DNA of 64,000 nucleotides, taken from NCBI RefSeq assembly GCF_054482525.1, contig NZ_CM137006.1. The stretch is one strand, 5' to 3'. Below the pieces are notes generated by a model, which saw nothing but the letters and a program-made list of their open reading frames with translations, was not told the origin of the DNA and did no database searches. The position numbers and the translations under genes are program-made. Shown here piece by piece: positions 16,006 to 33,088 of this stretch; within the stretch, counting starts at the first letter, position 1; every line of letters begins with the position of its first letter.

Positions 16006-17909
16006 ACACCTCTTTATTTGAAGATCTACTTACACTAATCAAGAAAAAGAGTTCGATAAGAAATACAGAGCAAGCAGTAGAGTTAATTTCATTATTTATT
16101 TTTTTACATTATATAAAATTATATCTTTATGAAAATGATAAAAGATTTTCAGATATAAAAAACATATCAAGCAACAACATTAATGAAATTAAATATTATT
16201 ACCAGCAACTATATGAAAGTTTTATTTTCTCGATAGATATAAAAAATATAAACCACGACATGCTTGAAAACCTCAGGAGTAAGATAGGTTTTTTAATTAA
16301 TAACATCAATGACCATGAAATAATTAAATATATAGATTATTCTATTTCGCAGATACATTCACTTACAGAATTCCATCAATATGCAAATTCTTATCAATCT
16401 TTAATTCTTAGGATGGTTAATGAATCGGGTCGTTCAGGTGAATATGTTACTCCATCTGCTTTAGTTCAGCTCATGGTTGAAATGTTATCACCTACAGATG
16501 GCACATCAATCTACGACCCAGCATGTGGAACTGGGGGTTTATTAATAGAGTCAGCACGATATATTAAAGGCAACAGTTTAAACAAAAACTTAAATTTAAA
16601 TTATTCCCTTATTGGTAATGACACATCATCATTTGCCTGTCTAATCTCAATTGTTAACCTTTTAATCAATAAAGAATTTAATTTTGAAATAATACTAAAA
16701 GATAGCTTAGATATAAATTATAAGAATAAAAAATATGACTTTGTTTTAACTAACCCACCATTTGGGAAAAAGAGCTGTTGGGATAATATTCATATTGACA
16801 CACATTATAAAGGACCTAATCTAGACTATTACTTCCTGGAGCATGTTATTGACTCTCTCGCTGTTAATGGCAAAGCAGCCATGATATTACCAGAGCGTTT
16901 TTTATATGATGTGAGTGAAGAGTGCATCACTCTTAAAGATAAGATCTTCCAAAATTATAATTTAGATTGTATTTTATCTATACCGTCAGGTGCATTGCTT
17001 CCTTACACTGCAGTAAAATTATGTATTCTTTTTATAAGTAATTCTGGCCCAACAGATAGAATATTTTTCTACAATTTAAATAATGGTGAAAAATACTCAC
17101 GTACAAATATTATAAAATTCGATGATTTTATAGATTTTTTAGAGTCAGCAAAAAATAGAACAATAACTGAACACTCCTGGATTATCAATATTAGTGATAC
17201 ACCTTCATCTTATAACTTACTCTTAAAAGATAAAGAGCGAAACTCATATGAGTTTCTTAGTGATTCTATAGTTAACATTGAACAGACAATACGTAATAAT
17301 GAATTATTACTAACAGAGTTGTCTTTATTAAGAGAAAAAATAGCAATCTTAGAGTCAACAATAAAAAATCATTCGCATGAATATGAATTTGAGAGACTTA
17401 AAGTTGGAAATATTGCAATAGTAAAATCCGGAAATTTATTACAAAAAAACAGGCTGTTACCCACTGGACCAATTCCTGTATACGGTGGAAATGGAGTTAT
17501 TGGATATAATAATGAAGCAATGGAAAATGGTGAAAATATTATTATTGGTAAGGTCGGAGCTCTTTGCGGAAACGTTCGGTATGTTCAAGGTGATATTTGG
17601 GTGACAAATAACTCATTAATTATTAAGAATTATTCACCAAATAAAGTTTTAACACCCTACCTTGCAAAATTATTATCTACTTTAAACTTAAGAAGGCTCG
17701 CCGTTGGTACCGCTCAGCAATATTTAACCACGACACAAATAAAAAATGTAGAAGTTAGTATTCCACCTTTAACGACCCAGTATAAATTAAATATTTGGCT
17801 TGATGAGTTAGATAATACGCTTGAACAATATAATAATCTCATTGAAAAAATAATGAATGATAAGCGAGAACTTAAAGAGAATTTGTATAAAGGTCTTTTA
17901 ATAGAATAG
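16002..17909 (+). CDS. Gamma-class N6-adenine DNA methyltransferase fused to an HsdS-like target-recognition domain (635 aa)
   Basis: Motif I DPACGTGGLL followed by motif IV NPPFG; C-terminal region resembles type I specificity-subunit TRDs; AT-rich; coupled to the upstream ATPase. Confidence 0.75.
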   Translation: MNTSLFEDLLTLIKKKSSIRNTEQAVELISLFIFLHYIKLYLYENDKRFSDIKNISSNNINEIKYYYQQLYESFIFSIDIKNINHDMLENLRSKIGFLINNINDHEIIKYIDYSISQIHSLTEFHQYANSYQSLILRMVNESGRSGEYVTPSALVQLMVEMLSPTDGTSIYDPACGTGGLLIESARYIKGNSLNKNLNLNYSLIGNDTSSFACLISIVNLLINKEFNFEIILKDSLDINYKNKKYDFVLTNPPFGKKSCWDNIHIDTHYKGPNLDYYFLEHVIDSLAVNGKAAMILPERFLYDVSEECITLKDKIFQNYNLDCILSIPSGALLPYTAVKLCILFISNSGPTDRIFFYNLNNGEKYSRTNIIKFDDFIDFLESAKNRTITEHSWIINISDTPSSYNLLLKDKERNSYEFLSDSIVNIEQTIRNNELLLTELSLLREKIAILESTIKNHSHEYEFERLKVGNIAIVKSGNLLQKNRLLPTGPIPVYGGNGVIGYNNEAMENGENIIIGKVGALCGNVRYVQGDIWVTNNSLIIKNYSPNKVLTPYLAKLLSTLNLRRLAVGTAQQYLTTTQIKNVEVSIPPLTTQYKLNIWLDELDNTLEQYNNLIEKIMNDKRELKENLYKGLLIE

Positions 17910-17989: not shown

Positions 17990-20900
17990 TTAATAATGCT
18001 CCTCAATATACCCATACGCCTTCTGGAACAACTCTTTATCTTTCCCTAGTCCAAACTGGGCCAAGGTCAGCAAAAGCGCCTTTTGGATTTCGCGCGGGCC
18101 ACTGTTAGAATTTTGCCAGCCATCAAAGCGGGTAGCTTTCACAATTTTATCAATTTGCTCTACAACATCACCGATTAACTTAGGGGTAGTTTCCGGACGT
18201 GTTTCGAGGAAAAGCTTAGTCAACGCCTGTTTATTATCAGCTTCAGTTACTGGACGCTCGCCCGTTTCGCGCTCGGCTTGAACGGTATCTTTCGCTGCAT
18301 CCAACAGGCCTTTCAACCAGTCAATGGCCTTGATAACACCAGCTTCATAGTCCTGACGCAGTTTTTCAAGGCGCTCGCCCAATGCCACAAATTTAGGATC
18401 ATGACTGCCGCGCAAACGTCCCATAAGATCAATCTCCAGGCGTTTAGCACGTTGTTCCTGCTCTTTAGCGGTCAGGGTAAAAATAGCGTGCTCGTCCATG
18501 ACCAACTCGTCAATATCATCGCGAATACGATTGATATCAGTATGCTCATGGATCATCTTGATTGTTTCGGGGCCAAGGGCAGCCCAAACAAGCGCACCTG
18601 TCTGCCCTACCGGACGCACCGATTCATAAATTTGCGCCAGCCATTTATAGTCCTGACGATAAGGGGTCAAAAAAGGGTCTGGGTTGATAGCTGACCATAA
18701 CTTGGATAACACACCAAAGCTGGCAGCGAATTCATCGCGCTTCTCGTTGGTCGGCAGGCATTCCTGCGCGGCCATAATACCTTCAAAACCAGCTATGGAC
18801 CGATCCACACCAGGGAAGAAGGACAAACATTTATTCAGTTGTAACGGCAATAGCTCTTTAAATGCCTCAATTCCCTCTACAACTCCTTCAATTTCTTCAG
18901 GGTTATAGGCCAGAGCGGTACGCAGATTTTCGAAAACGCCGAGGTAGTCGATAATTAATCCCATGTCCTTGCGTACAGTATCGGTTTCGTACAGCCGGTT
19001 AGTTCGGCACATGGCCTGCAGAAGGGTATGATCGCGTAGAGGCTTATCGAGGTACATGCAGTAGCAAATCGGGGCATCAAAGCCCGTAAGCAGCTTGGCG
19101 GTTACGATAATAAGCTGTAATGGATATTCAGGATCTTTAAAGCACTCAATTAGATCCTTTTGCACCTGCTCTTCGGCATCGATGTGCTGCCAGCGTTCAA
19201 AATCGACTTGTTTGACAGGCAGCTCCAACTCATCATGCCATTTAAGCCAATCCTTGTTGAGCTTGTCTTTTTTGCCACCCTCTTCAACTTTAATCGGAGC
19301 CTGGTCAACGTTCATAACCACTTCAACTGCATCAAAACCAAGCTTTTCACCGAGCAAATAATACATCTGCACACAGGCTTCGCGATCGTATACCACAACC
19401 ATGCCTTTCATCTTTTTCGGCATAACATGGTTGGTAAAATGCTCAGCAATATCATTACTCACCGCAGCCATACGTCTGGGAGATTTCAGCATAATAGCCA
19501 GCTTGCCGGCACGTCTGGACAATGCTGCTTTTTCTTCTTCATCCAGGTTGTTTTCGGTAGCCAGTTGCTCGAACTCTTCATTGATGGCATCACGATCCAC
19601 TCGGAGTTCAGCCAGCCGAGGTTCGAACTTCACCGGGTTAGTTGCGCCATCCCGGATCGACTGCTTATAGCTATAGCGGCTCATATAGCGACCTGGATCT
19701 TCTTCGGCACCGAACAATTTGAACGTATTACGATCAATGCCAGAAATCGGAGTACCAGTCAGGCCATAGAAGTGGGCATTGGGCAACGCCCAGCGCATTT
19801 TCTCGCCTAATCCCCCTTCCTGTGTACGGTGAGCTTCGTCAACCAACACAATGATATTGTCCCGGTTGTTCAGGCCATTAGGGTTGCTATCGTCAATTTC
19901 GATATCTTTAAATTTAAAGATGGTGGTGATTAAAATGCCACGGCTGTCTTGTTCAATGTATTCACCCAACTTTTTGCAGCTTTGCACTTTAATCAGATTC
20001 TTAACGTCGGCTCCACCAAAGGTCTCGTTAATTTGGCTGTCCAGATCTCGCCGGTCCACAACGATAAGTACCGTCGGGTTTTTTAACGCATTATCGGCAC
20101 GTAGCATTTTGGCGGCGTAAAGCATCAACAAGGATTTACCCGATCCCTGGAAATGCCAAATAAGACCTTTTTTTGGATAGCCTCTGCGAACACGCTCAAC
20201 AATTTGTTTTGCAGCTTCAAATTGCGGATAACGCGGCAAGATTTTAACGCGTTTAGGTGGAGTATTTTTGCCCGTTTTGACGGTTGAAAATAATGCAAAA
20301 GATTCCAGTAACTGCAATAAGGTTTGCGGATTTAACAAACTCTCACAGCTATTGAGTACCGATGCCAGACCCGGCAAAATTTCATCACGAAGCTCAGTAT
20401 TATGCCAGGGTCCCCAGTCTTTAACTCGGGCATTAATGGCTCCATAGGCAAAGGTTTTACCTTCGCTGGCAAAGCACAGCAAGTTAGGTACAAAGAAAGA
20501 TTCAACATTTTTCCAGTAGTACTTTTTGCCACCCATGAAATCGGCAGCACCGTCTTGCCAGGTCACGCTGGGGCGTGTTGCGGTTTTAACTTCGCCTACT
20601 ACCAGTGGCATGCCGTTCACATAAAGAACAATATCAAAATAGACTTCAGTGGCCGCGATATAGTGAACCTGCTGCGCCACTACAAAGTGGTTGTTCTCTA
20701 TATTGTCAAAATCAATCAGATTGATGGTGATATGGTCGCCATTCTTACCAAAAGGCAAGGTTTTGTCGGCCATCAACCATTCCTGGAAGTTTTCATTGGC
20801 CTTTACCAAGCCGGTATGGCGGGCTTCTAAAACCACTCCTCGCAGTTTGTAAATGACCTCATCGGCATAGTCAGGCTGTCTGCCGATATCAGGGTTTAAC

Positions 20901-21070
20901 GAACAAAGCGCGTCTTTTAGCCACTCATCAACGAATATATCCTGCGCTTGTTTAGGCAGGTTTTCACCGTGGCAGTAAGTCCACTTGACTCCGCTTAAAC
21001 CTTTTAAACGGTCGATAATTCCATTTTCTGTGACGGTTTGTTCGTTAAACATTTTATATTTCCTTATCAA
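17990..21070 (-). CDS. hsdR: Type I restriction enzyme R subunit HsdR (alternative start at 21052)
   Basis: 1026 aa; Walker A GSGKS and DEAH box (VDEAHRTQ); recognisable HsdR N-terminal nuclease region; operon with hsdM/hsdS. Confidence 0.9.
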   Translation of the reverse strand: MIRKYKMFNEQTVTENGIIDRLKGLSGVKWTYCHGENLPKQAQDIFVDEWLKDALCSLNPDIGRQPDYADEVIYKLRGVVLEARHTGLVKANENFQEWLMADKTLPFGKNGDHITINLIDFDNIENNHFVVAQQVHYIAATEVYFDIVLYVNGMPLVVGEVKTATRPSVTWQDGAADFMGGKKYYWKNVESFFVPNLLCFASEGKTFAYGAINARVKDWGPWHNTELRDEILPGLASVLNSCESLLNPQTLLQLLESFALFSTVKTGKNTPPKRVKILPRYPQFEAAKQIVERVRRGYPKKGLIWHFQGSGKSLLMLYAAKMLRADNALKNPTVLIVVDRRDLDSQINETFGGADVKNLIKVQSCKKLGEYIEQDSRGILITTIFKFKDIEIDDSNPNGLNNRDNIIVLVDEAHRTQEGGLGEKMRWALPNAHFYGLTGTPISGIDRNTFKLFGAEEDPGRYMSRYSYKQSIRDGATNPVKFEPRLAELRVDRDAINEEFEQLATENNLDEEEKAALSRRAGKLAIMLKSPRRMAAVSNDIAEHFTNHVMPKKMKGMVVVYDREACVQMYYLLGEKLGFDAVEVVMNVDQAPIKVEEGGKKDKLNKDWLKWHDELELPVKQVDFERWQHIDAEEQVQKDLIECFKDPEYPLQLIIVTAKLLTGFDAPICYCMYLDKPLRDHTLLQAMCRTNRLYETDTVRKDMGLIIDYLGVFENLRTALAYNPEEIEGVVEGIEAFKELLPLQLNKCLSFFPGVDRSIAGFEGIMAAQECLPTNEKRDEFAASFGVLSKLWSAINPDPFLTPYRQDYKWLAQIYESVRPVGQTGALVWAALGPETIKMIHEHTDINRIRDDIDELVMDEHAIFTLTAKEQEQRAKRLEIDLMGRLRGSHDPKFVALGERLEKLRQDYEAGVIKAIDWLKGLLDAAKDTVQAERETGERPVTEADNKQALTKLFLETRPETTPKLIGDVVEQIDKIVKATRFDGWQNSNSGPREIQKALLLTLAQFGLGKDKELFQKAYGYIEEHY

Positions 21071-22241
21071 TCATAGCTTGGCGCAGTTGAATAATTTTCC
21101 CCAAGGATTCATTGTGCCTATAAATATTCTCATACGAACACTTAAACGTATTAATGATTGATGCTTGAATATCGAAGGGAGGAATAGGAATTTGAATTTT
21201 TAAAAAGTTATCTTTATTTATTTTCTTCATACTTCCGCTAGTTCCAGCAGCAATACCTTGAATAGCTCGACGGCCATATGGAGACATCAGATAGTACATT
21301 AAAAACTCTTTTTTAATAAATTTTTCGTCAACAGCCAATCTCCACATCGTGTCTGGGAAAATCGTATTCCCATTGCCAGTCGATCCTTTATATTTTCCAA
21401 CTAAACCAACCAACTCCGCTGTATTAGAACGAGAGATTAACAAATCACCATCATTGCATGTTTTTCCTTTTAAAAAATGATCTTCTGTAATATTTTTTAA
21501 AGTAGTTTCTCTGAATCCTGATTTCGACAAACTATTTAGGTTCAGGACATAGTACCCAGTCCCGACTGCGGTTTCAACAGGAGAATATCCCCCTTCTGGA
21601 GAATCAATTAAAACATCTTTAATAGAACCAAAAGTCCATCCAACCGGAAGAGGAACACATTTATTCTCCCTCGAATCAAAGTAGTTATCAAAAGTCCGTA
21701 GACCAATAGCATATAATAATCTTTTAGCTGCTTTGAGAGCACTTAAATATAGAAGTTCTTTCTTTGCTAACGAATCAAAGATTATTAATGACGAGTATTG
21801 CTGTTCAATGCTCGGTATATTAACTTCTAGTTTATTTAAATCACTCCATTTTATTCGCGATGATAGCGAGCCGGCGGAATTTGCAATCACCTTTTCCATA
21901 AAAGAGGTTGATTGCATCAAGTGGGGTAAGTACCCATCCAATAAGTAGTTGTTTTTCCTTGGTTTAATTACCATTGCATCAGCAGAGCAAATACCATTAA
22001 TAGGGCTCACCGACACCCTTTTTAAATATGTATTTCGTCTACTAAAAATTATTTCGCCACACTTTACCTTAAAGGCTTGTGTTTTCAATTCAACGTCAGC
22101 CCCCCAATCATGAACATAAAAATAACCAGATTTCAAATGTTCCAACCCAATAAAATGCTTAGCATCGTCGCTTGTTGGGGAGATTCTAACCATAACCTGT
22201 TCAGCAAGATCACCAAATGTAACATTTCTTTTATTATTCAT
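21054..22241 (-). CDS. hsdS: Type I restriction-modification specificity subunit HsdS (start uncertain; ORF extends to 22292)
   Basis: About 400 aa, consistent with a two-TRD specificity subunit; lies between hsdM and hsdR with overlapping ends. Confidence 0.8.
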   Translation of the reverse strand: MNNKRNVTFGDLAEQVMVRISPTSDDAKHFIGLEHLKSGYFYVHDWGADVELKTQAFKVKCGEIIFSRRNTYLKRVSVSPINGICSADAMVIKPRKNNYLLDGYLPHLMQSTSFMEKVIANSAGSLSSRIKWSDLNKLEVNIPSIEQQYSSLIIFDSLAKKELLYLSALKAAKRLLYAIGLRTFDNYFDSRENKCVPLPVGWTFGSIKDVLIDSPEGGYSPVETAVGTGYYVLNLNSLSKSGFRETTLKNITEDHFLKGKTCNDGDLLISRSNTAELVGLVGKYKGSTGNGNTIFPDTMWRLAVDEKFIKKEFLMYYLMSPYGRRAIQGIAAGTSGSMKKINKDNFLKIQIPIPPFDIQASIINTFKCSYENIYRHNESLGKIIQLRQAMIDKEI

Positions 22242-23739
22242 TATTATATTTCTCTCTATCAATTTCATAGCCAATGCTATCCAAGCTATCAAACAATACC
22301 TTGATATTTCTTTTGAGTTTTACGCTACTGACTTTCCATGATTCGATAGCATGCTGAATATCATTCATTTTGACATTGTTTTGAGATTTCACATAAAGTG
22401 AAATCGATAAATTATAGAAATTTTCTTTAATAGCTTCGATATCCACTAAAGCGGTTATGTCGTTTTTTTTCTCCGGATTAAAATAAGCCTCGCATAATAC
22501 TTCCAAATCATCATCAGATAGGCGACTATGGGCACGTTCACGGGTAACATACTCAACCCCGTTGATAAACAAAACCTTATTTTTGCGTTCAGCAGGTTTA
22601 TTGCAATTAAGCACCACCAAGCAAGATTCCATCGGCGAGTTGTAAAACAGATTTGGTCCCAAACCAATCACCGCTTCGATTATGTCGGATTCAATCACCT
22701 GTTTACGAATGGCTTGTTCAGAATCACGGAACAGTACACCATGCGGCCAGAGCATGGCAGCACGACCGGTGTCGGGTTTTAAACTTTTGATTATATGGGT
22801 ATAAAACGCATAATCAGCACAACCTTGTGGAGGCACGCCATAGAGATTACGCCCATAGGGATCGGCTGCAAACTTGTCACGATTCCATTTCTTAATGGAG
22901 TATGGTGGGTTAGCAAAAATCACATCAAACTGCTTGAGCCGATCGTTTTCAATAAACTTTGGCTCAGCCAAAGTATCACCACGCAGCACATCAAACTCTT
23001 CAATATCATGCAGGAACATATTCATACGAGCAATAGCGGAAGTCAGCAGGTTCACTTCCTGACCATAAAGGTGCACAGAGCGCCACTCTTCTCCTCTTGC
23101 ACGAAGATCCATCACTGCATTTAGCAACATCCCTCCAGTGCCACACGTTGGATCATAGGCTGTTTCACCCGGTTTTAAGCCCATAATGCGCGTCATTAAA
23201 TGCACGACTGTTCGGTTGGTGTAGAACTCTGCTGCCGTATGACCGGAATCATCAGCGAACTTTTTAATCAGGTATTCGTAGGCCTCACCAAGATCATCCT
23301 GAGCGACAGATTTAATACCGAGCGGTATTTTACTGAAATGTTCAATCAGATCAGCCAGCAGATGATCGGGCAGGCGCTCTTTATTGGTCCACTGCGCATC
23401 ACCGAAGACGCCATGTAAACGCGGATTATTGGCTTCAATTAGTCGAAGCGCATTCTGGATCGCTTCACCAATGTTTTTACTGGTATTGCGTACCTTTTCC
23501 CAACTGGCTTCAGAGGGAATATTGAAACGGTGAAACATCGGCATGGCGGCATATTCAGCATCACCTTCATGGAGTTCCAGCGCTTCGTTATATTCTTCCA
23601 GATAGACATCTGACAGGCGTTTGTAAAACAGCAACGGGAAGATATACTGCTTGTAGTCTGATGCGTCAATTTGGCCACGAAGAAATTCGGCGGCTCCCCA
23701 GAGCAGCTCTTCCAGCTTTTTATTACTCATAGTACTCAT
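22234..23739 (-). CDS. hsdM: Type I R-M methyltransferase subunit HsdM (copy 1, 501 aa)
   Basis: Motifs DPTCGTGGML and ANPPYS; HsdM-like N-terminal domain. Confidence 0.9.
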   Translation of the reverse strand: MSTMSNKKLEELLWGAAEFLRGQIDASDYKQYIFPLLFYKRLSDVYLEEYNEALELHEGDAEYAAMPMFHRFNIPSEASWEKVRNTSKNIGEAIQNALRLIEANNPRLHGVFGDAQWTNKERLPDHLLADLIEHFSKIPLGIKSVAQDDLGEAYEYLIKKFADDSGHTAAEFYTNRTVVHLMTRIMGLKPGETAYDPTCGTGGMLLNAVMDLRARGEEWRSVHLYGQEVNLLTSAIARMNMFLHDIEEFDVLRGDTLAEPKFIENDRLKQFDVIFANPPYSIKKWNRDKFAADPYGRNLYGVPPQGCADYAFYTHIIKSLKPDTGRAAMLWPHGVLFRDSEQAIRKQVIESDIIEAVIGLGPNLFYNSPMESCLVVLNCNKPAERKNKVLFINGVEYVTRERAHSRLSDDDLEVLCEAYFNPEKKNDITALVDIEAIKENFYNLSISLYVKSQNNVKMNDIQHAIESWKVSSVKLKRNIKVLFDSLDSIGYEIDREKYNNE

Positions 23740-25235
23740 ACCTCGAACCCTTCTTTGATAAGCAGGGCCTCCAGCTCCTCTTCTGCTTTTTCCAGCTCAG
23801 CCAGCTTCCGTTGAAAATCTTTGAGCGCCTCTTCCACAGTGATGGTTTCTTCTTCGAGTGGCTTTTGCACATAACGAGCAATATTTAGATTGAAGTCATT
23901 TTCTTCAATCTCCTTCAGAGGAACCCAGCGTGCAACGCCTTCGATTTCTTTTGCATCTGGCCCTTGTTGCGCCTGGTCATGATAGATTTGGTATATTTCA
24001 TCGGCCTGCTTGTTGGACAGCGTATTCTGCGCACGTCCCTTGGTATAGATTTCTTCAGCATTGATGATCAATACATGATCTTTATGCGCGGCCGGACGTG
24101 ATTTACGCAGCACCAAAATACACGCAGGAATCCCAGTTCCATAGAACAGGTTGGAAGCAACACCAATAATCGCCACAATGCGATTCTCTTGCAGTAATTT
24201 GGTTCGAATTGCCCCCTCTGCGCCGCCACGAAACAGCACACCATGAGGTAATACGACTGCCATACGTCCATTGTCGTTAAGTGAAGCAAACATATGCTGC
24301 ACCCAGGCAAAATCACCATTTGTTTTAGGCGCCAGGCCATATTGCTTACGGCCATAGGGATCGTTCGACCACAGATCGTATCCCCATTCTTTTAAGCTAA
24401 ACGGTGGGTTGGCAACAACGCAGTCAAAGGTTTCTAAACGATCGCTTTTTAAAAATTTAGGTTCGCGTAAAGTATCCCCTCGGACAATATCGAAATCTTC
24501 CTGTCCATGCAGGAACAGATTCATACGCGCAATAGCTTCCGTCGTTAAGTTCTTTTCCTGACCCTTGATTTTTAGTAAACGCGGATCACCACCATTTTCT
24601 TTTACATGGTGGATGGTCTCAAGCAGCATACCACCGGTACCACAGGCGGGATCGTAGACACTCTCACCGGCTTTTGGATCAAGAATGTTAACCATCAAAC
24701 GAACGATAGTTCGTGGGGTATAGAACTCACCTGCTTTCTTATTGGCTTTGTCTGCAAAGCGTTTGATCAGATACTCGTATGCGCGCCCCATATCATCGTC
24801 ACGGACACTAGAAACGCCAAGGTTCACCTTATTGAAGTGATTGAGTAACGTAGCCAGTAACTCATCAGAAAGGCGTTCTTTATTGGTCCAGCTGGCATCG
24901 CCAAAAATGCCATGCAGTTTAGGGTTTGCCAGTTCTATACCACGGAAGGACTCTTTTAAAGCCTGACCGATGTCCTTGGTCTCAGCGAAAACATCGCGCC
25001 AGTGGCAATTTTCAGGTATCTGAATACGGTGAAACATCTTGCCCTTGGCAAGCTCTGCATCCCCAACGCTCTCCATCGCATCAGCAAATTCTTCGTCATA
25101 CACGTCACAAATGCGCTTGAAGAACAAGATGGGGAAAATGTACGTTTTGTAATCTGACGCATCAATGGGCCCTGTAATAATATGGGCTGCATGCCATAGA
25201 TGGGCCTCGAGATCTTTTAGGTTAATCAGTGTCAT
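23736..25235 (-). CDS. Second, divergent HsdM-like N6-adenine methyltransferase (copy 2; extended ORF reaches 25337)
   Basis: Motifs DPACGTGGML and ANPPFS; about half of residues identical to copy 1 by eye; ATGA overlap with copy 1. Confidence 0.85.
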   Translation of the reverse strand: MTLINLKDLEAHLWHAAHIITGPIDASDYKTYIFPILFFKRICDVYDEEFADAMESVGDAELAKGKMFHRIQIPENCHWRDVFAETKDIGQALKESFRGIELANPKLHGIFGDASWTNKERLSDELLATLLNHFNKVNLGVSSVRDDDMGRAYEYLIKRFADKANKKAGEFYTPRTIVRLMVNILDPKAGESVYDPACGTGGMLLETIHHVKENGGDPRLLKIKGQEKNLTTEAIARMNLFLHGQEDFDIVRGDTLREPKFLKSDRLETFDCVVANPPFSLKEWGYDLWSNDPYGRKQYGLAPKTNGDFAWVQHMFASLNDNGRMAVVLPHGVLFRGGAEGAIRTKLLQENRIVAIIGVASNLFYGTGIPACILVLRKSRPAAHKDHVLIINAEEIYTKGRAQNTLSNKQADEIYQIYHDQAQQGPDAKEIEGVARWVPLKEIEENDFNLNIARYVQKPLEEETITVEEALKDFQRKLAELEKAEEELEALLIKEGFEV

Positions 25236-25478
25236 TGTTGTCTCTTTTCGATCCTGCAGTGCTTGAACTCTCAGCAACTCATGGATTTCACAGTAAAAAA
25301 GCAAGCAAAGCGATTCCACAACCACCTGAGCGTTCAATACGTATGACGCCTTTACCCAAGTTGCTTAAATCAAGGAAATTGCCAGAGATAATACTCTGGC
25401 ATCAGAATGATACCAAGTTGAAGGGCTGATTTCCGCATCAATACCTTGTGGTAATAGGGGATTACTCTTTTACCCTTA

Positions 25479-26046
25479 TTGGCGCAAAATGGCGGCATTT
25501 ACTCATTTCTCCATCGGAGCATCTTACGCGCTATAACCACTCTCGTTTTTTCCTATTCCCATGCAGATGAAGCACTACGCAATGAACTTGAGAAGCATCT
25601 CTCCCCGCTGAAGCGAACCGGGAAGATCACAACATGGCACGATCGCCGCATCGTTCCTGGTCAGGAGTTCGAACGTCAGATCGACCACTATTTTTCGCAA
25701 GCAGATATCATCCTGATCCTGATCCTGATCCTGATCAGCAGTGACTTTATTGCTTCTGATTACTGCTATCAGGTAGAGATGAAAAACGCACTGGAACGGC
25801 ATGACCGGGGCGAGGCGGTGGTCATTCCGGTAATTTTAAGAAACTGTGCATGGCATCAGTTATAATTCGGCAGCATTATGGCGGCGACTATCGACGGTAA
25901 ACCCATCACTAAGTTTGCCACCCACGATGAAGGCTACGTTCAGGTCGTCGAGGCCGTCTCGCGTGCCATTGCCCGGATGGAAGCCAAAAAACTACAGCAA
26001 ACCATACATATCCCTTCACCGGCTCCGGCGAATCCGATCTTTTAGG
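25479..26046 (+). pseudogene. TIR-domain gene interrupted by an in-frame TAA stop at 25863-25865; the same frame continues to TAG at 26044-26046
   Basis: TIR-like signature ...VFSYSHADEAL...SSDFIASDYCYQVEM...VIPVILRNCAW, then stop, then ...FGSIMAATIDGKPITKF... in the same frame. Confidence 0.6.
25710..25733. repeat. (ATCCTG)4 hexanucleotide repeat inside the TIR gene, encoding an ILILILIL tract
   Basis: Read directly from the sequence. Confidence 0.9.
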
Positions 26047-26445
26047 GAGTAGATTCCGTTTTTACACCGCGTTCAAGCAACCTTACTCTATCTGTTATAG
26101 CCAGGATAATGTTGTTCGAAACAGTATTAACGAAATTGTAAGCCTTGCTGATAACGGCCAGACTCTTGGTTTTCGTGCTCTGATGGGAGGCTTCAGTCGT
26201 GGAACTTCACGAGACGAACTATTGACCAATGAAGGTATGTCGGAACATCTCTGGGAAATGTTCTTCGGGCTAATCAAGCAAAGAATGTCCCGATAATTTG
26301 CCATATCACAGTCGGGCATACTGCCCGATTTTTGTGCTGTCATTATTGGCAATATCTCAATAGGCGTTGAGAAATGGTGCAATTTAATCTTGCCAGAGCG
26401 CTGTTACTTGGGGACGAAATGAATGGGCTCCTGCTGTAGTTACAG

Positions 26446-26480: not shown

Positions 26481-27476
26481 TCATGCAGGCAAATACGTTT
26501 TCTTAAGCGGCACCAACAGCTTAGTTTCAATATCCACCTGCTCATAGTTTTCCACTAACGCGCGTACCAAATCGTCCAGCGTCCATAGCGTCAACGGGAT
26601 TGTAGAACGATCGGCCTCATAACGCGCATCCTTGCTGAATCCGCCGGTACTAACATACAGCCCGCGATCGTCTTTATGACGGCCACCGATAAAGCTACGG
26701 ATTTGCTGGCTGCTCATCTGTTCCCGCCGGTGCTTCACCTCAACAATAATGCGCGGATTTTCAAACCCAAATCCGTCAGGCGAAGCAATGATGTCTTTCC
26801 CACGGTCAGCACCCGCAGGCGATACCTGAGTTTTATATCCCATGCTGCGTAACACGCCAGCGACCAGATTCTGCATCTCATCCCAGTCGAGACGGTTGAT
26901 ACGATCCTTGATGCCTTCAAAAGCGATCATTTCCATGTCGCGCAGAGGATTAGAAACGACCTCATCCTCTTCACCTGAAACAGGTACTTCCGGCACGATA
27001 TCTGAGACAGGCTTATTGCCCTGCACTAATTCATTCACAGCAAAATCAGGCACCTGAAAAACTGTCAGCGTTGAACCAAGGGTGTTTCTGGTTGCATCAC
27101 TCAGACTATCGCGCTTAATCTCTTCCGCATTCCACTTCACTTTACGGGCGATGCCCATGCCATCTTCAAGCCACTCGGCATGAAACTCAAAATCTGACGC
27201 TATTTTCCCTATTAAATAGGTCCGATTAGAAGGTGAATAAGTGATAGCCCAGTCGCCTTTCTGCATTTCATTCACAAAGCGCCAGACCTGAGAAGCTCCA
27301 GAACGAACTGTGCCTGGCTTAGTCTGTGGCTCAAGCTCCTGATACCGGGTAAACAACTGCTCTCTTGAGCATCCAGGTTTCACATAGGGAGCGAGCTGCG
27401 ACCAACCAATTGCAACAACCTGTTTGTCTCTGAAGTCGTCGTACAATTTTCCGCCATCACCGCGGATCATCCACAT
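26481..27476 (-). CDS. Mrr-like (type IV-like) restriction endonuclease with an uncharacterised N-terminal domain
   Basis: C-terminal PD-(D/E)xK-type signature ...GKDIIA...RIIVEVKHRR...QQIRSFIG typical of Mrr catalytic domains; start chosen at MWMIRGDGG (ORF extends to 27644). Confidence 0.65.
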   Translation of the reverse strand: MWMIRGDGGKLYDDFRDKQVVAIGWSQLAPYVKPGCSREQLFTRYQELEPQTKPGTVRSGASQVWRFVNEMQKGDWAITYSPSNRTYLIGKIASDFEFHAEWLEDGMGIARKVKWNAEEIKRDSLSDATRNTLGSTLTVFQVPDFAVNELVQGNKPVSDIVPEVPVSGEEDEVVSNPLRDMEMIAFEGIKDRINRLDWDEMQNLVAGVLRSMGYKTQVSPAGADRGKDIIASPDGFGFENPRIIVEVKHRREQMSSQQIRSFIGGRHKDDRGLYVSTGGFSKDARYEADRSTIPLTLWTLDDLVRALVENYEQVDIETKLLVPLKKTYLPA

Positions 27477-27597
27477 CTTAGTCGCCACAATAATTCCTTC
27501 TGAAAATACTTCATCGTTATACCGGGACGTGATCATTCCATTCAGCCATCTTATCCAGGGAAAAACACCGATAAGATGGCTAATCAAAATGTCTGTT

Positions 27598-30500
27598 CTA
27601 AACCTGACGCCTCTCAAGACTATTATAAATAGCCTCAATTTCACCTTTCAGGTTATCACCAGAGTAAACCATCGATGTATCGTATCGTTCATATCGCGCT
27701 TCCCGTGTCGCACTAAACCAGTTGAACGATCCCACGCATAGCAAACCATCATCACCAATAACAATTTTGCTATGAACACGGTTTACCAGCTTTGTAGCAA
27801 TACCCAGCGCATTCAGTTTCTCCAGCGCCGCTTTAAGGTTCTGCTGCTTCTCTTTTCGCTTCTCAAAATCTTTATGTTCAGTGTTGTAGCTTCTGTCAGT
27901 GACTATCGTGACGTTAATACCACGTGAACACGCCGCAATCATGGAATCAAGAAAACCCGTTTGCTCCAGCTTTTGCCAGGTCAGCCATGGAGAAACTATC
28001 GTGATGTGTTTATCGGTATTTTCAAACGTCTGATTCAGGAAATTATCATGCTGCTCCACACCATGGAGTGTGTAGATTTTGGTCTCGGAAGTTTTTAAAT
28101 CCTTACGCTCTTTATAATCAAAAGAGAGCGCATTCTTCTCGGACTCAAAGAGATATTTTGCCAGTAATCCCCGCGGAGATGAGGGAGGCTGGATCTCAAA
28201 CAGATCCATATCGCCGAAGACCAGGAAGCTATCCTTCGCACGGGAGACTGCAACATTCAGCATGCTGTTATCGCTATCAATAAACCCGCCATCTTCATGT
28301 TTTGAATAGACTGGCGAGAATATAACAATCGCTCTTTCCGCTCCCTGAAGAGAGTGCACGGTGCCCACGGTGAGCGACTTTTCATTCGCGCCCGTACTGA
28401 TACCTTGTTTACCCAGCGCCTGTTTGATAGTGGATACCTGCGCGCTAAAAGGCGTCACGATACCGACAACTTCATGAAGCGATTTGCCGTAATGCGCTTC
28501 AATATTTTGCTGGTTCTCTGCCAACCAGGCCGCTATCGTTTCAGCCTCAAGCAAATTATATCTACTTCCACTACTTGCCAGCTCTCCTTTACCATCAATA
28601 TGGAGATAACCCATTGCGGGCATTAAATTGCTCTCTTCGCGCCCTCTTTTAGGCAACAACTTACCGTGATAGCAGAGCGTATTACAGTATCCAATAATAT
28701 TATCGAAGCACCGGCGGTGTTCATATAGGTACATACCACGAGCCAGTTCGGGATCATATTGATAGCGCGAAGCAAACTGCGCTATTTTCATAACGCTGCC
28801 AGATGCGGCACTTTTACCAAGGTCTGCGATTGCCGTATATTTCTCGGTAATCTCTTCTTGCGTACTGCCAGACAGAATTTTTTCCGCAAGCATGTTACCG
28901 ACATCAATCGCGGGAGCAATACTCCATATTGGCGGGATCTGCTCCGTATCGCCAATCACTAATGCCTTCTTAGCTAATGCAAACGAGGCAGCAGCCACTT
29001 CAGGAAGCACCTGCCCGGCTTCATCGACAATGAGTAAATCGGCAAAATCATACAAATAACTTTTCTCGAATTTACGTTGTCCTTTGTGCTCACTTATCTG
29101 CATATTGCCGGGCAGCATATAGCATGTCATCACCACACATGGAGTGAGTTTCATTCGACGTTGCCAACGGGCGGTTACCCCTTTAGCGCCTTTTTTCTTC
29201 TTCTCTTCCTGCAGATCATCAATTCTGGCCATATCCATCAGCCAACGACCTTCCCAGTAGTGAGTCGTCAGTAAAAATGCAGGGAAGCGAATCTGCGTAT
29301 CAGCCAGTTCATCGGCCTGTGAGAAGCTCAGTTCCTCGTCGCCCTCATACCCTAAATCAAATGCCAGCCTCTGCCACTCCTGAACCGCCTGCTGTTCTTT
29401 AAGAACGATTTCATGGGCGGAGTCAATCTGCTGCCGGTATGTTGTTTGCTCGCGCTCAGCGGAATTGAGCAGCCCATCAATATTACGTTCGATAGTTTCA
29501 GGATCAGACCACTGATTTCCTGCAATCAGCGCGCCTAATTTATCTTCGAGAAACAACTGTATTTGGTACTGTCGCTTACTACGAACCGCTGGGAGCCAGG
29601 AAAATAATGAATAGATCAGTGATTCACCGGCGCGATATTTTTTCCATTCCGTTTTAGCACTCTTCAGTAGAGTGACTTTTTGTTCTTGTCCGGAAAGTAA
29701 TTTATTTAAATTATCGAGATATTGCTCAATGTCGTTAGCAATAAGCTCACGCGCAGCCCGTACCTGGCTTAACGTTTGCCATGTTGCGTTCAGTCTTATC
29801 AGTTGCTCGGATTTTGCTGCCAACTGACCATGCAGGAGTTCAATGACCTTTTCAGGGGATGAACACTCTTTTTCAGGAAAAGCTGCCTTAGCTTTCTCGA
29901 GATAAAACAGCAGTGCATCCTCTACATACTCTTTTGACTCAACCTGGTTGAAGAAATCTTCAGTTTGATATTTTTTGGCTGCCTCAGCTTTACGAGTGCT
30001 TGAGGGAAAATAAGCGCCGAAGCTTTTCAGCTCTGGCAACCATCGTCCGGCCATCGCACCTGAACCTTGCGAAAAGTCTTTCCCGAATGCCTCAATAATG
30101 TTCGTTACAGCCTGGTTATTCGTTGAAGTCGCGATAATAACCGGAGGCTCAGATTTTTCGAGAGCTGCTCTGGCCCACTGCGTGGCGATGATAGAAAGCA
30201 CCAGCGTGGTTTTTCCGGTTCCCGGAGGTCCATTAACAGCAAGGATATCGCCATGTCTTGCATCCAGAAAATGGCTTAAGGCATCGCGCTGAGCCTTTGC
30301 CAGCGGAAACTTATCTCCGGAGTGTCCAAGCCTGTCGCTGAATTTTGCTCCTGGAGCCAGCAAAGACTCTGCAGCATGAACCTCTCGCGAGGCGAAGCGA
30401 TTGAAGAGCGGCACATCCTTCTTGCAAACAAGCAGGTGATCATAAAGAGAAAGGATATGGAAACTGGCACCGCCAGATTGCGCCGTTTTAACAATATAAC

Positions 30501-31113
30501 CGTGCTCAGCGAGTTCATATTGCTCAGGATTTTTAATCCAGTCGCCGGCAACGTTCTTCAGCAGCCTCTCTGAATCATCCAGATATTGATGCCACTCCTG
30601 CTGCAAGGCTGCATATCGTGCTTCCCGTTCTTCATCCGTTTCGGCAGTCTTATCAATGCTGTCATCAAAGTTGATAGAGAACGAGGTATGGATTGTCTTG
30701 TATTTGTCATACTGCCCAATCTCACCAATCGAAAATGCTCCTTTTGGCAAAGGTTCAAGCAGGTCTCTGGGAATGGAGGTCGCTGGCGTCGGATATAAAA
30801 AACCCTCACGGCTGAGCAAGGCTGGCGTCACTAGCGGGGTAACAATATCAGGTGCGCCTGCGGAACGGTCCTTACCATGCTGCAGTAACCGAAAATAAAC
30901 TTTTGGGCGCAAGACGACATCGACCGTTTCGACATCGTCTTTTTCTCCCTCAAAAAATTTACTGACAATCGCTTCGTCAAGACGTCCCGCCGCTATCCCA
31001 TGCCAGTGAGTGAAATTTTTGGCGTCTTTCCGTTCAAAACTGCCCTTTCCTGACTCAGCATCCGCAAGCGAGTTGCGCCAGTATGAGGCAAACCCTAAAG
31101 CATTTTCATCCAT
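27598..31113 (-). CDS. Upf1-like SF1 helicase fused to a C-terminal phospholipase-D-family nuclease (1171 aa; Mokosh type II-like)
   Basis: Walker [11 protein letters not shown], Walker [21 protein letters not shown] and [16 protein letters not shown] helicase motifs; C-terminal HxK(x)4D motif [19 protein letters not shown]. Confidence 0.7.
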
Positions 31114-31438
31114 TACCAGTCCTATGACTCAATGAAATCCATTGATTTATCGAATATAAAATCACCGTATGGATAACTATTGTCCACGTTGCAAGGCTGG
31201 CTGCAATGTTTTGTTCACGCTTCGATACAAATACTCAGGTTATACGGAGTTCAGAAAACGACCATATCATGTTGCATGGCACATAAAAGCTTTATAACCG
31301 AAGCAGCAAAGGATTACCGGCTGCGCAGCACGCCCCGAAAGCCCGTGAGCCCTGCTGGACAGCGTTCAGTGCAATATTGGAGCCTGTAAGTTCAGAAAAT
31401 ATCGCTGTCGAAGATGGTTCTGTATGTAGGCGCGCCAG

Positions 31439-31816
31439 CTATCGTTTTGTCCGATGCTTGCGAATAAAAGCATTCAAAATGTCGCCTTCACCATGCATGA
31501 CAGAAAAAGAATATTCACATTCTTTCTTTATCAAGATTCCACATAATTCCTTGTGCAAATCAACATTAACTCCCTTTCCTTTCTGCGCTTTCTTCACACC
31601 GAGCTCACATGAACTGATTAATTCAACGGTACAGGGTTTCTTCAGATAATTCACACCATCAATTAAGCCCTGGAGAATGCATCTATTTGCGGTCGTATCA
31701 CTGTAGGAGAAAGTCAGATATTTTATTTTTCCTTCGTATTCCAACACAACCTCCGCCGAACCTTCACGTGTTGCAGCATCACAACCTCCTGTTGAATATA
31801 TTTTTACCATCTTCAT
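31439..31816 (-). CDS. Small hypothetical protein (125 aa) with weak RNase HI-like resemblance; the usual catalytic acidic residues look substituted
   Basis: By-eye similarity of VKIYSTGGC / TANRCILQG to RNase HI VEIFTDGSC / TNNRMEL; speculative. Confidence 0.3.
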   Translation of the reverse strand: MKMVKIYSTGGCDAATREGSAEVVLEYEGKIKYLTFSYSDTTANRCILQGLIDGVNYLKKPCTVELISSCELGVKKAQKGKGVNVDLHKELCGILIKKECEYSFSVMHGEGDILNAFIRKHRTKR

Positions 31817-31884
31817 TTTGTAACTTTCCCCTTACCAAACGAATCGCGACATCCTATATCAAAGGCATTCTCGTCAAAACTTAA

Positions 31885-32664
31885 TTATCTCAGTAAATTC
31901 TTCCGATGCCACTCCAGATAACAATACGATTCAACAGAAAACGCCTTTATTTTCTCCGGCAACAAACATTGCTCTTTAACGCTAATATCCAGCGCCTTAC
32001 TAATTAATAAATGCCCATCGTTCTCAAACGAAATCCATCCCTGATCGAATAGAATATCAATATGCGCAGCCAATATAATTCCATTAAAAGGATCAAGCCG
32101 TTCATTCCCATTCTCGCAGGCAGCCCACGGCTTTATATGGCTGGTACGCAGTAAAGGTGCAAACGTCGTTCCCGTAACAGGACATGCCGGATACAACATA
32201 AGACAATTTTTCCGAAAGGTACCTTGCCCCAGCCGTGCCGCAATCAGCTGCTCGCGTACGGTATCTTCAATACTTTTATCCTGCTGAATAGCAAGACAGT
32301 CACGTTGTGCCTGTTCATCTCCAGCAGAAGATATTAACGAAAGAACGCGCTGCTCAATCGCACTGTCTGAAAGCACACTCATTCGCTGATACACACGCTG
32401 CGCTGAATGAGAAAGCGCAGCAGGAGCGCCCTGCTCGTCAAGCCAGCCGACACGCACATCACTAAGCCAGGAATCAAAACGGTCACGACTATTTTTCAGA
32501 CTATTGTGAAACTCGCTGGCAGTTTTGCCCGCTCCAAATCGAGGATAAAACAAGGCAAAAGCCTCTTTCCATTTCTGAACACCCAGTCCTGCGGGTGGTT
32601 GAGATTTTCCGTACTTCGACAAATACCACGCCACTTCAAGCAAATCGTCTTCAGAGCTATTCAA
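31885..32664 (-). CDS. HNH-motif endonuclease-like protein (259 aa)
   Basis: C-terminal CPVTG...SHIKPW...NG..L...H..FD.GWISF pattern characteristic of HNH nucleases. Confidence 0.5.
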   Translation of the reverse strand: MNSSEDDLLEVAWYLSKYGKSQPPAGLGVQKWKEAFALFYPRFGAGKTASEFHNSLKNSRDRFDSWLSDVRVGWLDEQGAPAALSHSAQRVYQRMSVLSDSAIEQRVLSLISSAGDEQAQRDCLAIQQDKSIEDTVREQLIAARLGQGTFRKNCLMLYPACPVTGTTFAPLLRTSHIKPWAACENGNERLDPFNGIILAAHIDILFDQGWISFENDGHLLISKALDISVKEQCLLPEKIKAFSVESYCYLEWHRKNLLR

Positions 32665-33003: not shown

Positions 33004-33088
33004 TGGTGCCGAAGGCCGGACTCGAACCGGCACGTATTTCTACGGTTGATTTTGAATCAACTGCGTCTACCGATTTCGCCACTTCGGC
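33004..33088 (-). tRNA. leuX: tRNA-Leu (anticodon CAA), leuX
   Basis: Reverse complement reads GCCGAAGTGGCGAAATCGGTAGACGCAGTTGATTCAAAATCAACCGTAGAAATACGTGCCGGTTCGAGTCCGGCCTTCGGCACCA, 85 nt with CAA anticodon loop and CCA end. Confidence 0.95.

Follow-up and report, generated by a model that had tools for sequence, protein, structure and literature searches.

The window, meaning the whole 64-kb stretch of DNA analysed here, is E. coli chromosome. On its minus strand, at 27598..31113, the ORF list and translation give an open reading frame with an ATG start that encodes 1171 aa plus a stop codon, with a computed product mass of 131.5 kDa. An earlier note had described this ORF as a Mokosh type II-like protein from its motifs; the ORF is real, is annotated in RefSeq and contains every motif that had been quoted. 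We designate it mkoC, a single-gene Mokosh type II system, from the ORF itself, a match to the PADLOC MkoC model, the RefSeq entry WP_000344089.1 and the identity of its N-terminal portion to the published construct SG150. WP_000344089.1 is the same CDS in the RefSeq annotation of identical E. coli genomes, where the product is named no more specifically than 'AAA domain-containing protein' or 'DNA helicase'; a literature search for WP_000344089 found no paper naming the accession.

The gene lies inside a ~19.5-kb defence island bounded by nanS and the tRNA-Leu gene leuX. Its neighbours comprise a type I R-M system, an Mrr-type endonuclease (PDC-S02), a TIR gene remnant, an HNH gene and a methylase/ATPase pair, and the tRNA-Leu gene adjoins. 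An RNase H-like ORF (upstream) and the Mrr-type endonuclease (downstream) flank mkoC directly, and no MkoB gene is among these flanking genes. In E. coli the gene is accessory, being present in 888 of 5426 complete genomes.

MkoC carries a helicase followed by a PLD nuclease, both in one polypeptide, which is the arrangement that defines type II Mokosh. Pfam profiles placed AAA_11 at residues 272-489 and 679-729, AAA_12 at 776-969 (E=7e-22) and PLDc_2 at 1028-1143 (E=1e-9), and thus all three families for which HMM searches had been proposed were found; no kinase family was among the Pfam matches. The first half of RecA1 (aa 271-393; 29935..30303, minus strand) was assigned from Pfam AAA_11 and AAA_30 and contains the Walker A motif GPPGTGKT at aa 295-302 (nt 30208-30231) with the catalytic lysine K301. 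The 10-residue Walker A stretch quoted in the earlier note corresponds to aa 294-303, and G295-T303 is invariant or almost so among homologues. RecA1 is then interrupted by an all-helical coiled-coil insertion of ~260 aa (aa 394-654; 29152..29934, minus strand), delimited from conservation and from DSSP on an AF2 model, with helices at 420-458, 462-495, 508-530, 538-586 and 597-630. The second half of RecA1 (aa 655-774; 28792..29151, minus strand; Pfam AAA_11 at 679-729 and conserved columns) holds motif II, DEAGQ, at aa 697-701 (nt 29011-29025) within LLIVDEAGQ (693-701), and a further 11-residue helicase motif at aa 719-729. RecA2 (aa 775-975; 28189..28791, minus strand) was recognised by motifs V and VI (VAVSRAK), Pfam AAA_12, matches to UPF1, IGHMBP2, SETX and DNA2, and Foldseek against the PDB; the quoted 16-residue helicase stretch is present at aa 918-933. 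The ATPase motifs of this Upf1-like (COG1112, SF1B) core are intact, and its initial recognition as such is borne out by the AAA_11/AAA_12 matches and by SETX, UPF1 and IGHMBP2 as nearest structures.

The C-terminal PLD nuclease domain (aa 1006-1171; 27601..28098, minus strand) matches Pfam PLDc_2 and PLDc and the PADLOC MkoB and DrmC models. Its HKD motif (aa 1114-1131; nt 27721-27774) is a complete HxK(x)4D(x)6GSxN with H1114, K1116, D1121 and GSFN, and the motif stretch first noticed at aa 1114-1132 aligns with the PLD active-site motif PF00614, which spans residues 1110-1133. HxK(x)4D occurs once in the whole protein. When the domain was compared with PDB sequences, the top matches were designed 'Bagel' propeller repeats ('VHS..IG.DG...VGS'), which we rejected as spurious. 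The true relatives NucT and Nuc were only marginal in this PDB search, and the PLD assignment is therefore based on profile matches in Pfam and PADLOC.

The N-terminal family-specific domain (aa 1-270; 30304..31113, minus strand) is mixed alpha/beta and contains the motifs YWRNSLAD and IPRDLLEP, with R116 and P121 invariant. The earlier note had described a 280-aa region of unknown fold here. The fold part of that description stands: these residues returned no Pfam, NCBIfam or PADLOC domain besides the MkoC model itself and no match among solved folds. The length is instead ~270 aa, with AAA_11 starting at residue 272. Among the 50 matches listed from AFDB50, the domain occurred in helicase- or PLD-annotated proteins and fragments alike, with no other domain context.

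The PADLOC MkoC model (PDLC03924) matched residues 1-1169 at model positions 1-1135 of 1136 (E=0, 1692.5 bits). For a 3.5-kb ORF, an E=0 profile match along the full length excludes chance by a wide margin. This full-length match, together with identity to SG150 over the visible parts of that construct, upholds the type II assignment that had been made by motif. Mokosh type I (MkoA + MkoB; for example in E. coli ETEC H10407) shares the Upf1-like COG1112 helicase and the PLD nuclease. It consists of two genes: one for MkoA, which includes a Ser/Thr kinase domain, and one for MkoB, for which an HTH-PLD architecture has been described. In contrast, MkoC is one gene with no kinase match, and it has its own N-terminal domain and coiled-coil insertion. 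The PADLOC MkoA models matched MkoC only at aa 692-994 (E=6e-37 and 1e-32), and MkoB matched the PLD domain (E=3e-17). Type I membership was rejected on the single gene, the lack of a kinase domain and the partial MkoA match; the phage spectra in the literature, and the counter-defences Alt and glucosylation, were reported for type I.

SauUSI has an N-terminal PLD nuclease, an SF2 helicase and a C-terminal reader of modified DNA. We rejected a type IV restriction enzyme of this kind for MkoC: its PLD domain follows an SF1B helicase instead of preceding an SF2 one, and it matched no type IV REase model. MkoC might instead be a housekeeping DNA or RNA helicase (RecD-like or IGHMBP2-like) with a PLD-like tail and no role in defence, as the generic RefSeq helicase names and weak NCBIfam matches to IGHMBP2 and RecD models could suggest. 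However, no NCBIfam housekeeping helicase model reached its cut-off for MkoC (TIGR00376, 77.4 bits against 348.9; RecD2, 26.5 against 500; RecD, 24.3 against 310), the gene is accessory, is a pseudogene remnant in K-12 and sits in a tRNA-linked defence island, and defence by mkoC has already been published for SG150. We regard the housekeeping explanation as refuted, with practically no chance of being correct.

SG150 is the verified 'Mokosh type II' construct, with E. coli 5-366-08_S1_C1 as its source and an MkoC of 1171 aa (Millman et al. 2022). The visible parts of SG150 are 399 nt at the start of its insert and the 399 N-terminal aa of its MkoC, and both are identical to the window. On this geometry the insert corresponds to 27537..31439 of the window, and mkoC is the only gene within it. 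Because the stated length and the clone geometry agree, we infer full identity from the 399 of 1171 residues that are visible; no difference between the two proteins was detected, and a few substitutions are possible in residues 400-1171. By this comparison the window gene is very probably the reference MkoC itself. An exact-sequence cluster look-up for the window protein returned no IMG id. The truncation boundary (A995/L996) and ~132 kDa mass given for EcMokosh II in a 2025 nuclease-NTPase preprint also fit the window protein.

The visible clone boundaries bear on the flanking non-coding sequence. The 326-bp upstream intergenic region (31114..31439, minus strand) is part of the published clone, which starts at 31439 by its visible end, and Millman et al. 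(2022) placed the cloned systems 'under their native promoters'. A sigma-70 consensus scan of these 326 bp gave no site, and the native promoter of mkoC was not located. Immediately 3' of the stop codon is a stable hairpin (27532..27593, minus strand) with a perfect 14-bp stem at 27542..27583 and an RNA fold of -26.5 kcal/mol (z=-3.7), without a subsequent T-run. The SG150 clone, placed from its visible part, ends at 27537 and takes in nearly all of the hairpin, including the entire 14-bp stem. This element is possibly a terminator or a processing element.

The gene order invites the question of partners. The HNH endonuclease, the 125-aa RNase H-like protein and MkoC could form a cooperating three-gene cassette, for example one with a broader phage range, and the HNH/RNase H-like/mkoC order is kept both in the E. 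coli leuX island and in an unrelated Enterobacter hormaechei integrative island, where the downstream gene differs. However, the Enterobacter copy is 95% identical and the common neighbours may only mean recent transfer of one block, HNH and RNase H-like neighbours are missing beside MkoC homologues of 52% and 36% identity, and the active published clone contains mkoC only. We consider such a cassette quite improbable. The downstream Mrr-type endonuclease (PDC-S02) was rejected as a partner: it is absent from SG150 as mapped from the visible parts and is replaced by another gene in Enterobacter. Neighbours of full-length distant homologues are unrelated, which, with the single-gene SG150 insert, supports mkoC working as an autonomous gene.

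In K-12, the same neighbourhood, adjoining nanS at the leuX island, holds the yjhR pseudogene (KpLE2 element). Only 338 aa of the C-terminal part are left in yjhR, and these align to MkoC aa 834-1171 at 67% identity. yjhR thus derives from another mkoC allele and does not function. It was yjhR that Cury et al. took as 'fused Mokosh'.

Across 60 homologues (30-51% identity), K301, D697/E698, H1114, K1116, D1121 and GSFNW are conserved. Conserved residues of the N-terminal domain are Y11, D18, G104, R116, L119, P121 and Y224. The N-terminal domain and the coiled-coil insertion are the most variable regions of the family; mean identity to the query is 24% in the insertion, versus ~50% in the RecA domains. 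The AF2 model of MkoC is confident (pLDDT 92.8, pTM 0.88). Its closest solved structures by Foldseek against the PDB are SETX/Sen1, UPF1, IGHMBP2, Aquarius, DNA2 and ZNFX1 (E 1e-17 to 1e-11), and sequence and fold searches of the PDB with full-length MkoC found no Mokosh structure. UPF1, IGHMBP2, SETX/Sen1, Aquarius, MOV10L1, ZNFX1 and DNA2 have the SF1B core motifs I, II, III, V and VI in common with MkoC, and RecA2 matches the eukaryotic Upf1-like helicases at a sequence E of about 1e-6. However, identity to these proteins and DNA2 is only 11-14%, and MkoC has neither a CH domain nor a DNA2-type PD-(D/E)XK nuclease; conversely, the fused PLD nuclease and the ~260-aa coiled-coil insertion are features of MkoC and not of the eukaryotic helicases.

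We hold it to be nearly certain that the window gene encodes MkoC, the one protein that makes up the type II Mokosh system with which E. coli resists phage. SG150, in which mkoC was cloned alone, is reported to defend against phage. Mokosh protects against phage, and mutating either the ATP site or the PLD site abolishes this protection, the Mokosh type of these mutants being unstated (Millman et al. 2022); a search of the supplements of that study for mutated residues (K301, H1114 and others) found none. EcMokosh II is a 132-kDa monomer in solution, its defence in the panel used was limited to the ssDNA phage SECphi17, and in vitro it cuts only ssDNA (M13, SECphi17) and nicks plasmid (2025 preprint). 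M13 cleavage was blocked by the nuclease mutant only, such that the PLD site is needed and the ATPase site is not (2025 preprint). As regards the motor, ATPase mutants cut ssDNA in vitro, yet ATP-site mutants lose defence in vivo.

In the mechanism we consider most likely, the helicase module would engage single-stranded nucleic acid exposed by the phage, for example the genome of an ssDNA phage, intermediates of rolling-circle or other replication, and possibly transcripts or R-loops. ATP would drive the helicase along the bound strand or power remodelling of that strand, and the PLD domain would then cleave it, so that phage replication stops. MkoC may alternatively be chiefly RNA-directed, where the helicase reads phage transcripts or RNA:DNA hybrids, the PLD domain cuts RNA in the manner of PLD6/Zucchini and ssDNA cleavage is secondary. 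The helicase core is nearest to the RNA helicases UPF1, IGHMBP2, SETX/Sen1 and Aquarius, and an RNase H-like gene lies immediately upstream of mkoC. Against this, the Upf1-like helicases DNA2, IGHMBP2 and UPF1 act on ssDNA too, and the upstream gene falls outside the active SG150 clone as placed from its visible part. In favour of an RNA target, the fused E. coli Mokosh is structurally similar to MOV10L1 and PLD6 (Cury et al.), RNA or RNA/DNA intermediates were the hypothesised Mokosh target (Millman et al. 2022), and the in vitro substrate panel for EcMokosh II comprised DNA, not RNA. However, the purified protein cleaves ssDNA in a PLD-site-dependent manner, and its panel defence was only against an ssDNA phage. 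A chiefly RNA-directed MkoC is conceivable, but we think it unlikely.

A further explanation is abortive infection, in which a phage cue activates MkoC, the host chromosome, plasmids or RNA are also nicked or degraded, and the cell is killed or arrested. Many helicase-nuclease defence proteins act in this way, which counts for the explanation, and MkoC is without a recognisable sequence-specificity module. Plasmid nicking in vitro fits as well, although expression at the chosen level of induction was not noted to be toxic (2025 preprint). A literature search found no infection-dynamics data for Mokosh type II. We judge abortive infection to be rather unlikely.

For strand cleavage by the PLD domain as proposed above, the organisation of the active site is a separate matter. 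The single-HKD nucleases Nuc/NucT, BfiI, PLD6/Zucchini and DrmC (DISARM) have, as MkoC does, the motif and one ~165-aa PLD lobe, and at the sequence level the MkoC domain weakly matched NucT (E=0.018; NCBIfam NucT) and DrmC. Nuc, BfiI and Zucchini are obligate homodimers in which two HKD motifs build one active site; MkoC differs in being helicase-fused and reportedly monomeric. A TM of 0.63 was given between the fused E. coli Mokosh and PLD6 (Cury et al.). The single HKD motif is at odds with the two-motif requirement of PLD enzymes and the reported EcMokosh II monomer. Transient dimerisation on the substrate might complete the active site, and the N-terminal domain and coiled-coil arm may serve in target sensing or autoinhibition. 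The earlier note's suggestion that the N-terminal region may carry sensing specificity fits its place among the two most variable regions of the family. PLD-less MkoC relatives adjoin GGDEF, ART-PolyVal or ABC-3C (CTD1/MComp1) genes, or large function-unknown proteins; because these relatives adjoin other effector genes, the N-terminal-domain-plus-helicase chassis could be read as a portable sensor. As a tentative and doubtful proposal, the N-terminal domain and coiled-coil arm would gate a half-site PLD nuclease, phage single-stranded nucleic acid would pair the monomers, and the chassis would act as a portable sensor for other effectors.

The gene family, the domain architecture, the defence function and this allele have all been published before, and the locus is not a discovery; PADLOC and DefenseFinder call mkoC automatically. 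The outcome confirms that a defence gene was recognisable to a first-stage reader from motifs alone. Newly described here are a confident AF2 model, an N-terminal domain without a solved-fold match, the ~260-aa RecA1 insertion and the misfit between a single HKD motif and a monomer. The AF2 model, together with the conserved residues listed for the N-terminal domain, offers concrete targets for mutagenesis.

Translation of the open reading frame at 27598..31113 (−), which the earlier note had read as a 1171-aa helicase-nuclease fusion like that of Mokosh type II, recovered every helicase and PLD motif quoted for it. The mkoC ORF spans 3516 nt (1171 codons plus stop) from an ATG start, with a plausible putative ribosome-binding site (AGGA) 10 nt 5' of the start. 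The translation contains Walker A (aa 294-303), motif II (LLIVDEAGQ, aa 693-701), motif III (11 residues, aa 719-729), motif V (16 residues, aa 918-933) and a complete PLD motif, HxK(x)4D(x)6GSxN (aa 1114-1132), within which lies the only HxK(x)4D of the protein. All three Pfam domains searched for were matched in this one ORF: AAA_11 at residues 272-489 and 679-729, AAA_12 at 776-969 (E=7e-22) and PLDc_2 at 1028-1143 (E=1e-9). The PADLOC MkoC model covers the full length of the protein (E=0, 1692.5 bits; residues 1-1169 against model positions 1-1135 of 1136), which supports the type II assignment, whereas the PADLOC models of Mokosh type I each fit just part of it (MkoA, aa 692-994; MkoB, the PLD domain).

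Two findings could have spoken against this assignment, namely membership in a housekeeping helicase family or an HxK motif that falls outside the PLD catalytic residues. NCBIfam is without any model for MkoC, and its helicase matches (IGHMBP2 family, RecD, RecD2, PLuB, ProA, Hhe) are all far under the curated cut-offs, which argues against a housekeeping helicase. The PLD active-site motif PF00614 spans aa 1110-1133, which puts the HxK in register with the catalytic motif. The Pfam search of MkoC found no kinase domain and no domain of any kind in residues 1-270. The family is large, with 1138 clusters at 50% identity matching at E<=1e-30; most of these sequences have 1150-1200 aa and align from the N-terminal end onwards.

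The gene is an already known, published E. coli type II Mokosh. Mokosh was defined by a COG1112 Upf1-like RNA helicase together with a PLD nuclease, type II being the single-gene fusion (10.1101/2022.05.11.491447). In the supplementary table of that work, construct SG150, which comes from E. coli 5-366-08_S1_C1, is entered as 'Mokosh type II' with status 'v' (verified), with an insert of 3903 bp and an MkoC of 1171 aa (Millman et al., 10.1101/2022.05.11.491447). The comparison with a reference MkoC that the earlier note had proposed was made with this construct: the first 399 nt of the insert and the first 399 aa of the protein, which are the parts of SG150 compared, are all identical to the window, and the proteins have the same length. 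Extrapolated from the compared part, the insert corresponds to 27537..31439, from the last base of the stop codon of the upstream ORF to 61 nt past the mkoC stop. On this placement the clone is therefore mkoC alone, expressed from its native promoter.

The purified protein named EcMokosh II was monomeric (132 kDa expected, ~138 kDa by mass photometry) and was truncated as M1-A995 and L996-end (10.1101/2025.07.10.664194). In the window MkoC, residues 995 and 996 are likewise A and L and the mass is calculated at 131.5 kDa, in agreement with these constructs. EcMokosh II defended against only the ssDNA phage SECphi17 in a panel of 11 phages; from a substrate panel without RNA it cleaved only ssDNA, and it nicked plasmid DNA (10.1101/2025.07.10.664194). 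Cleavage of M13 was abolished by mutation of the nuclease site but not of the NTPase site (10.1101/2025.07.10.664194). A relation has also been drawn between fused E. coli Mokosh and two piRNA-pathway proteins, MOV10L1 and PLD6 (Cury et al., 10.1101/2022.12.12.520048).

The conservation of MkoC was assessed in an alignment of 60 full-length homologues with 30-51% identity to it. Walker A, DEAGQ and motifs III, V and VI are kept, as are H1114, K1116, D1121 and GSFNW of the PLD domain. Two motifs near the N terminus, YWRNSLAD and IPRDLLEP, are kept as well, and R116 and P121 show no variation. From the same alignment, AlphaFold2 gave a confident model (mean pLDDT 92.8, pTM 0.88) in which a mixed alpha/beta N-terminal domain (aa 1-270) precedes a RecA1 domain in two segments (aa 271-393 and 655-774), separated by an all-helical coiled-coil insertion (aa 394-654) with helices of up to 49 residues; RecA2 (aa 775-975), a short linker (aa 976-1005) and a single PLD lobe (aa 1006-1171) follow. 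No Mokosh structure was found in the PDB by sequence or fold search. The closest solved structures by Foldseek (E 1e-17 to 1e-11, 11-14% identity) are those of the Upf1-like SF1B helicases SETX/Sen1, UPF1, IGHMBP2, Aquarius, DNA2, ZNFX1 and nsp13. Mean identity to MkoC across the family is 27% in the N-terminal domain and 24% in the coiled-coil insertion, compared with about 50% in the RecA domains, and among close enterobacterial alleles, too, variable sites make up a larger share of these two regions than of any other. Such variability would suit recognition of a target or trigger but is not proof of that role.

MkoC is best supported as a single-protein defence enzyme that combines an ATP-driven Upf1-like motor with a PLD nuclease. 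The motor would engage phage single-stranded nucleic acid, and the nuclease would cut the engaged strand. PLD active sites normally require two HKD motifs. MkoC has one, though the protein is reported to be monomeric, and we therefore infer that it may dimerise upon substrate, which would supply the second motif. Mokosh ATP-site mutants, of a type not stated, lose defence in vivo (10.1101/2022.05.11.491447). Cleavage of ssDNA in vitro thus does not need the ATPase, yet defence in vivo needs the ATP site.

We considered whether neighbouring genes contribute. The HNH_2 endonuclease (259 aa) and the 125-aa ORF directly upstream of mkoC (31439..32664, −) recur with mkoC, their order unchanged, in Enterobacter hormaechei CP140498.1 (L008 5451..10516), within a different integrative island (AlpA, DUF3158, AcaB, DUF2857) and with a different downstream gene. 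At 95% identity, the trio may simply have been transferred as a block, or it could be a functional cassette. The 125-aa ORF (31439..31816, −; hypothetical in RefSeq) is RNase HI-like, matching Pfam RNase_H (E=7e-5), PHROG 531 (E=7e-7) and, over aa 1-68, E. coli RNase HI structures (E about 3e-6). It has T, I and S at the positions of D10, E48 and D70, which we take to be the catalytic residues of E. coli RNase HI, so its product is probably an inactive RNase H fold. This ORF lies outside the published active clone. The neighbours of distant full-length homologues are unrelated to these genes: one homologue lies among housekeeping genes and another beside a RelB/YafQ pair, which together with the single-gene clone supports the autonomy of mkoC.

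On the other side, a gene for an Mrr-type endonuclease (26481..27470, −; 329 aa, C-terminal Mrr_cat E=3e-23) begins 127 nt downstream of mkoC, also outside the clone. It matches PDC-S02 (E=2e-82), a candidate single-gene system in PADLOC; a mechanical ORF call extends it to 387 aa from a GTG at 27644, overlapping mkoC, while RefSeq places the start at 27470. Directly 3' of the mkoC stop is a hairpin (27532..27593, −) with a perfect 14-bp stem (-26.5 kcal/mol, z=-3.7 vs shuffles); no T-run comes after it, and it could act as a terminator or as a site of processing or binding.

The window is part of the E. coli chromosome, and its defence island runs from nanS to the tRNA-Leu(CAA) gene leuX (33004..33088), at about 13.4-33.0 kb. 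Core genes (ahr, idnK-D-O-T-R and yjgR) lie past leuX, and nanS-nanM-nanC-fimB are on the other side; no integrase was found in the island of this strain. In order, the island holds an ATPase/N6-methylase pair, a type I R-M system, a broken ThsB-like TIR gene, the Mrr-type endonuclease, mkoC, the 125-aa ORF and the HNH endonuclease. The first pair (14272..17909, +; 30-32% G+C against about 47-50% around it) consists of genes overlapping by 4 nt for a 577-aa ATPase of the ABC/AAA_21 type, which gives weak AriA, PtuA and GajA-like matches, and a 635-aa N6-DNA methylase fused to a type I S-like target-recognition domain. The pair was probably acquired horizontally as a module of its own, for defence or modification. 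The type I operon (17990..25337, −) has two tandem hsdM (533-aa and 501-aa ORFs) followed by hsdS and hsdR; its hsdS region (about 21052..22402) is unalignable to strain JNE070796, elsewhere 96-99% identical, so the specificity differs. The TIR gene (~25479..26296, +; PADLOC ThsB E=3e-60) carries a frameshift and a ~230-bp deletion relative to JNE070796, where it is intact (237 aa), and no ThsA partner was found near it in the window.

MkoC is identical (100%) to WP_000344089.1, which is encoded by strain PCN033 and some ten further complete genomes, and this exact sequence is on at least 1000 public contigs. Among 5426 complete E. coli genomes, 888 have the gene, in every case on the chromosome and mostly at 95-99% identity. 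In K-12 the equivalent site holds the KpLE2 element, and the yjhR pseudogene (L003 41016..42032; 338 aa) adjoins nanS. The alignment of yjhR to MkoC covers residues 834-1171 with 67% identity, so it is the C-terminal remnant of a different, divergent mkoC allele; as it occupies the same nanS-proximal end of the leuX island, E. coli has carried at least two distinct MkoC lineages at this hotspot.

PLD-less relatives (~970-1005 aa) account for about twenty of the best 150 representative clusters; they align to MkoC residues ~7-996, ending where the PLD domain would start. Among six neighbourhoods examined, those with candidate effectors (next to relatives at 38-47% identity) are L006 3851..7973, L007 4322..7982, L013 920..6226, L014 4001..9649 and L011 143..5726. 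One locus has a GGDEF protein 7 nt upstream and another an ART-PolyVal ADP-ribosyltransferase 25 nt upstream; one has an overlapping CTD1 gene, then MComp1 and an ABC ATPase (an ABC-3C-type system). Same-strand genes for large proteins of no known function lie downstream in two more (872 aa, 43 nt away; 683 aa, about 0.5 kb away), and in one the sole neighbour is a convergent PAD_porph gene, with none on the same strand. The varied candidate effectors suggest that the N-terminal domain plus helicase is a reusable sensor or motor chassis, though six loci are too few for a rule. Standard defence-finder tools detect mkoC itself. The residual value of this locus lies in the mechanistic questions and in two side leads.
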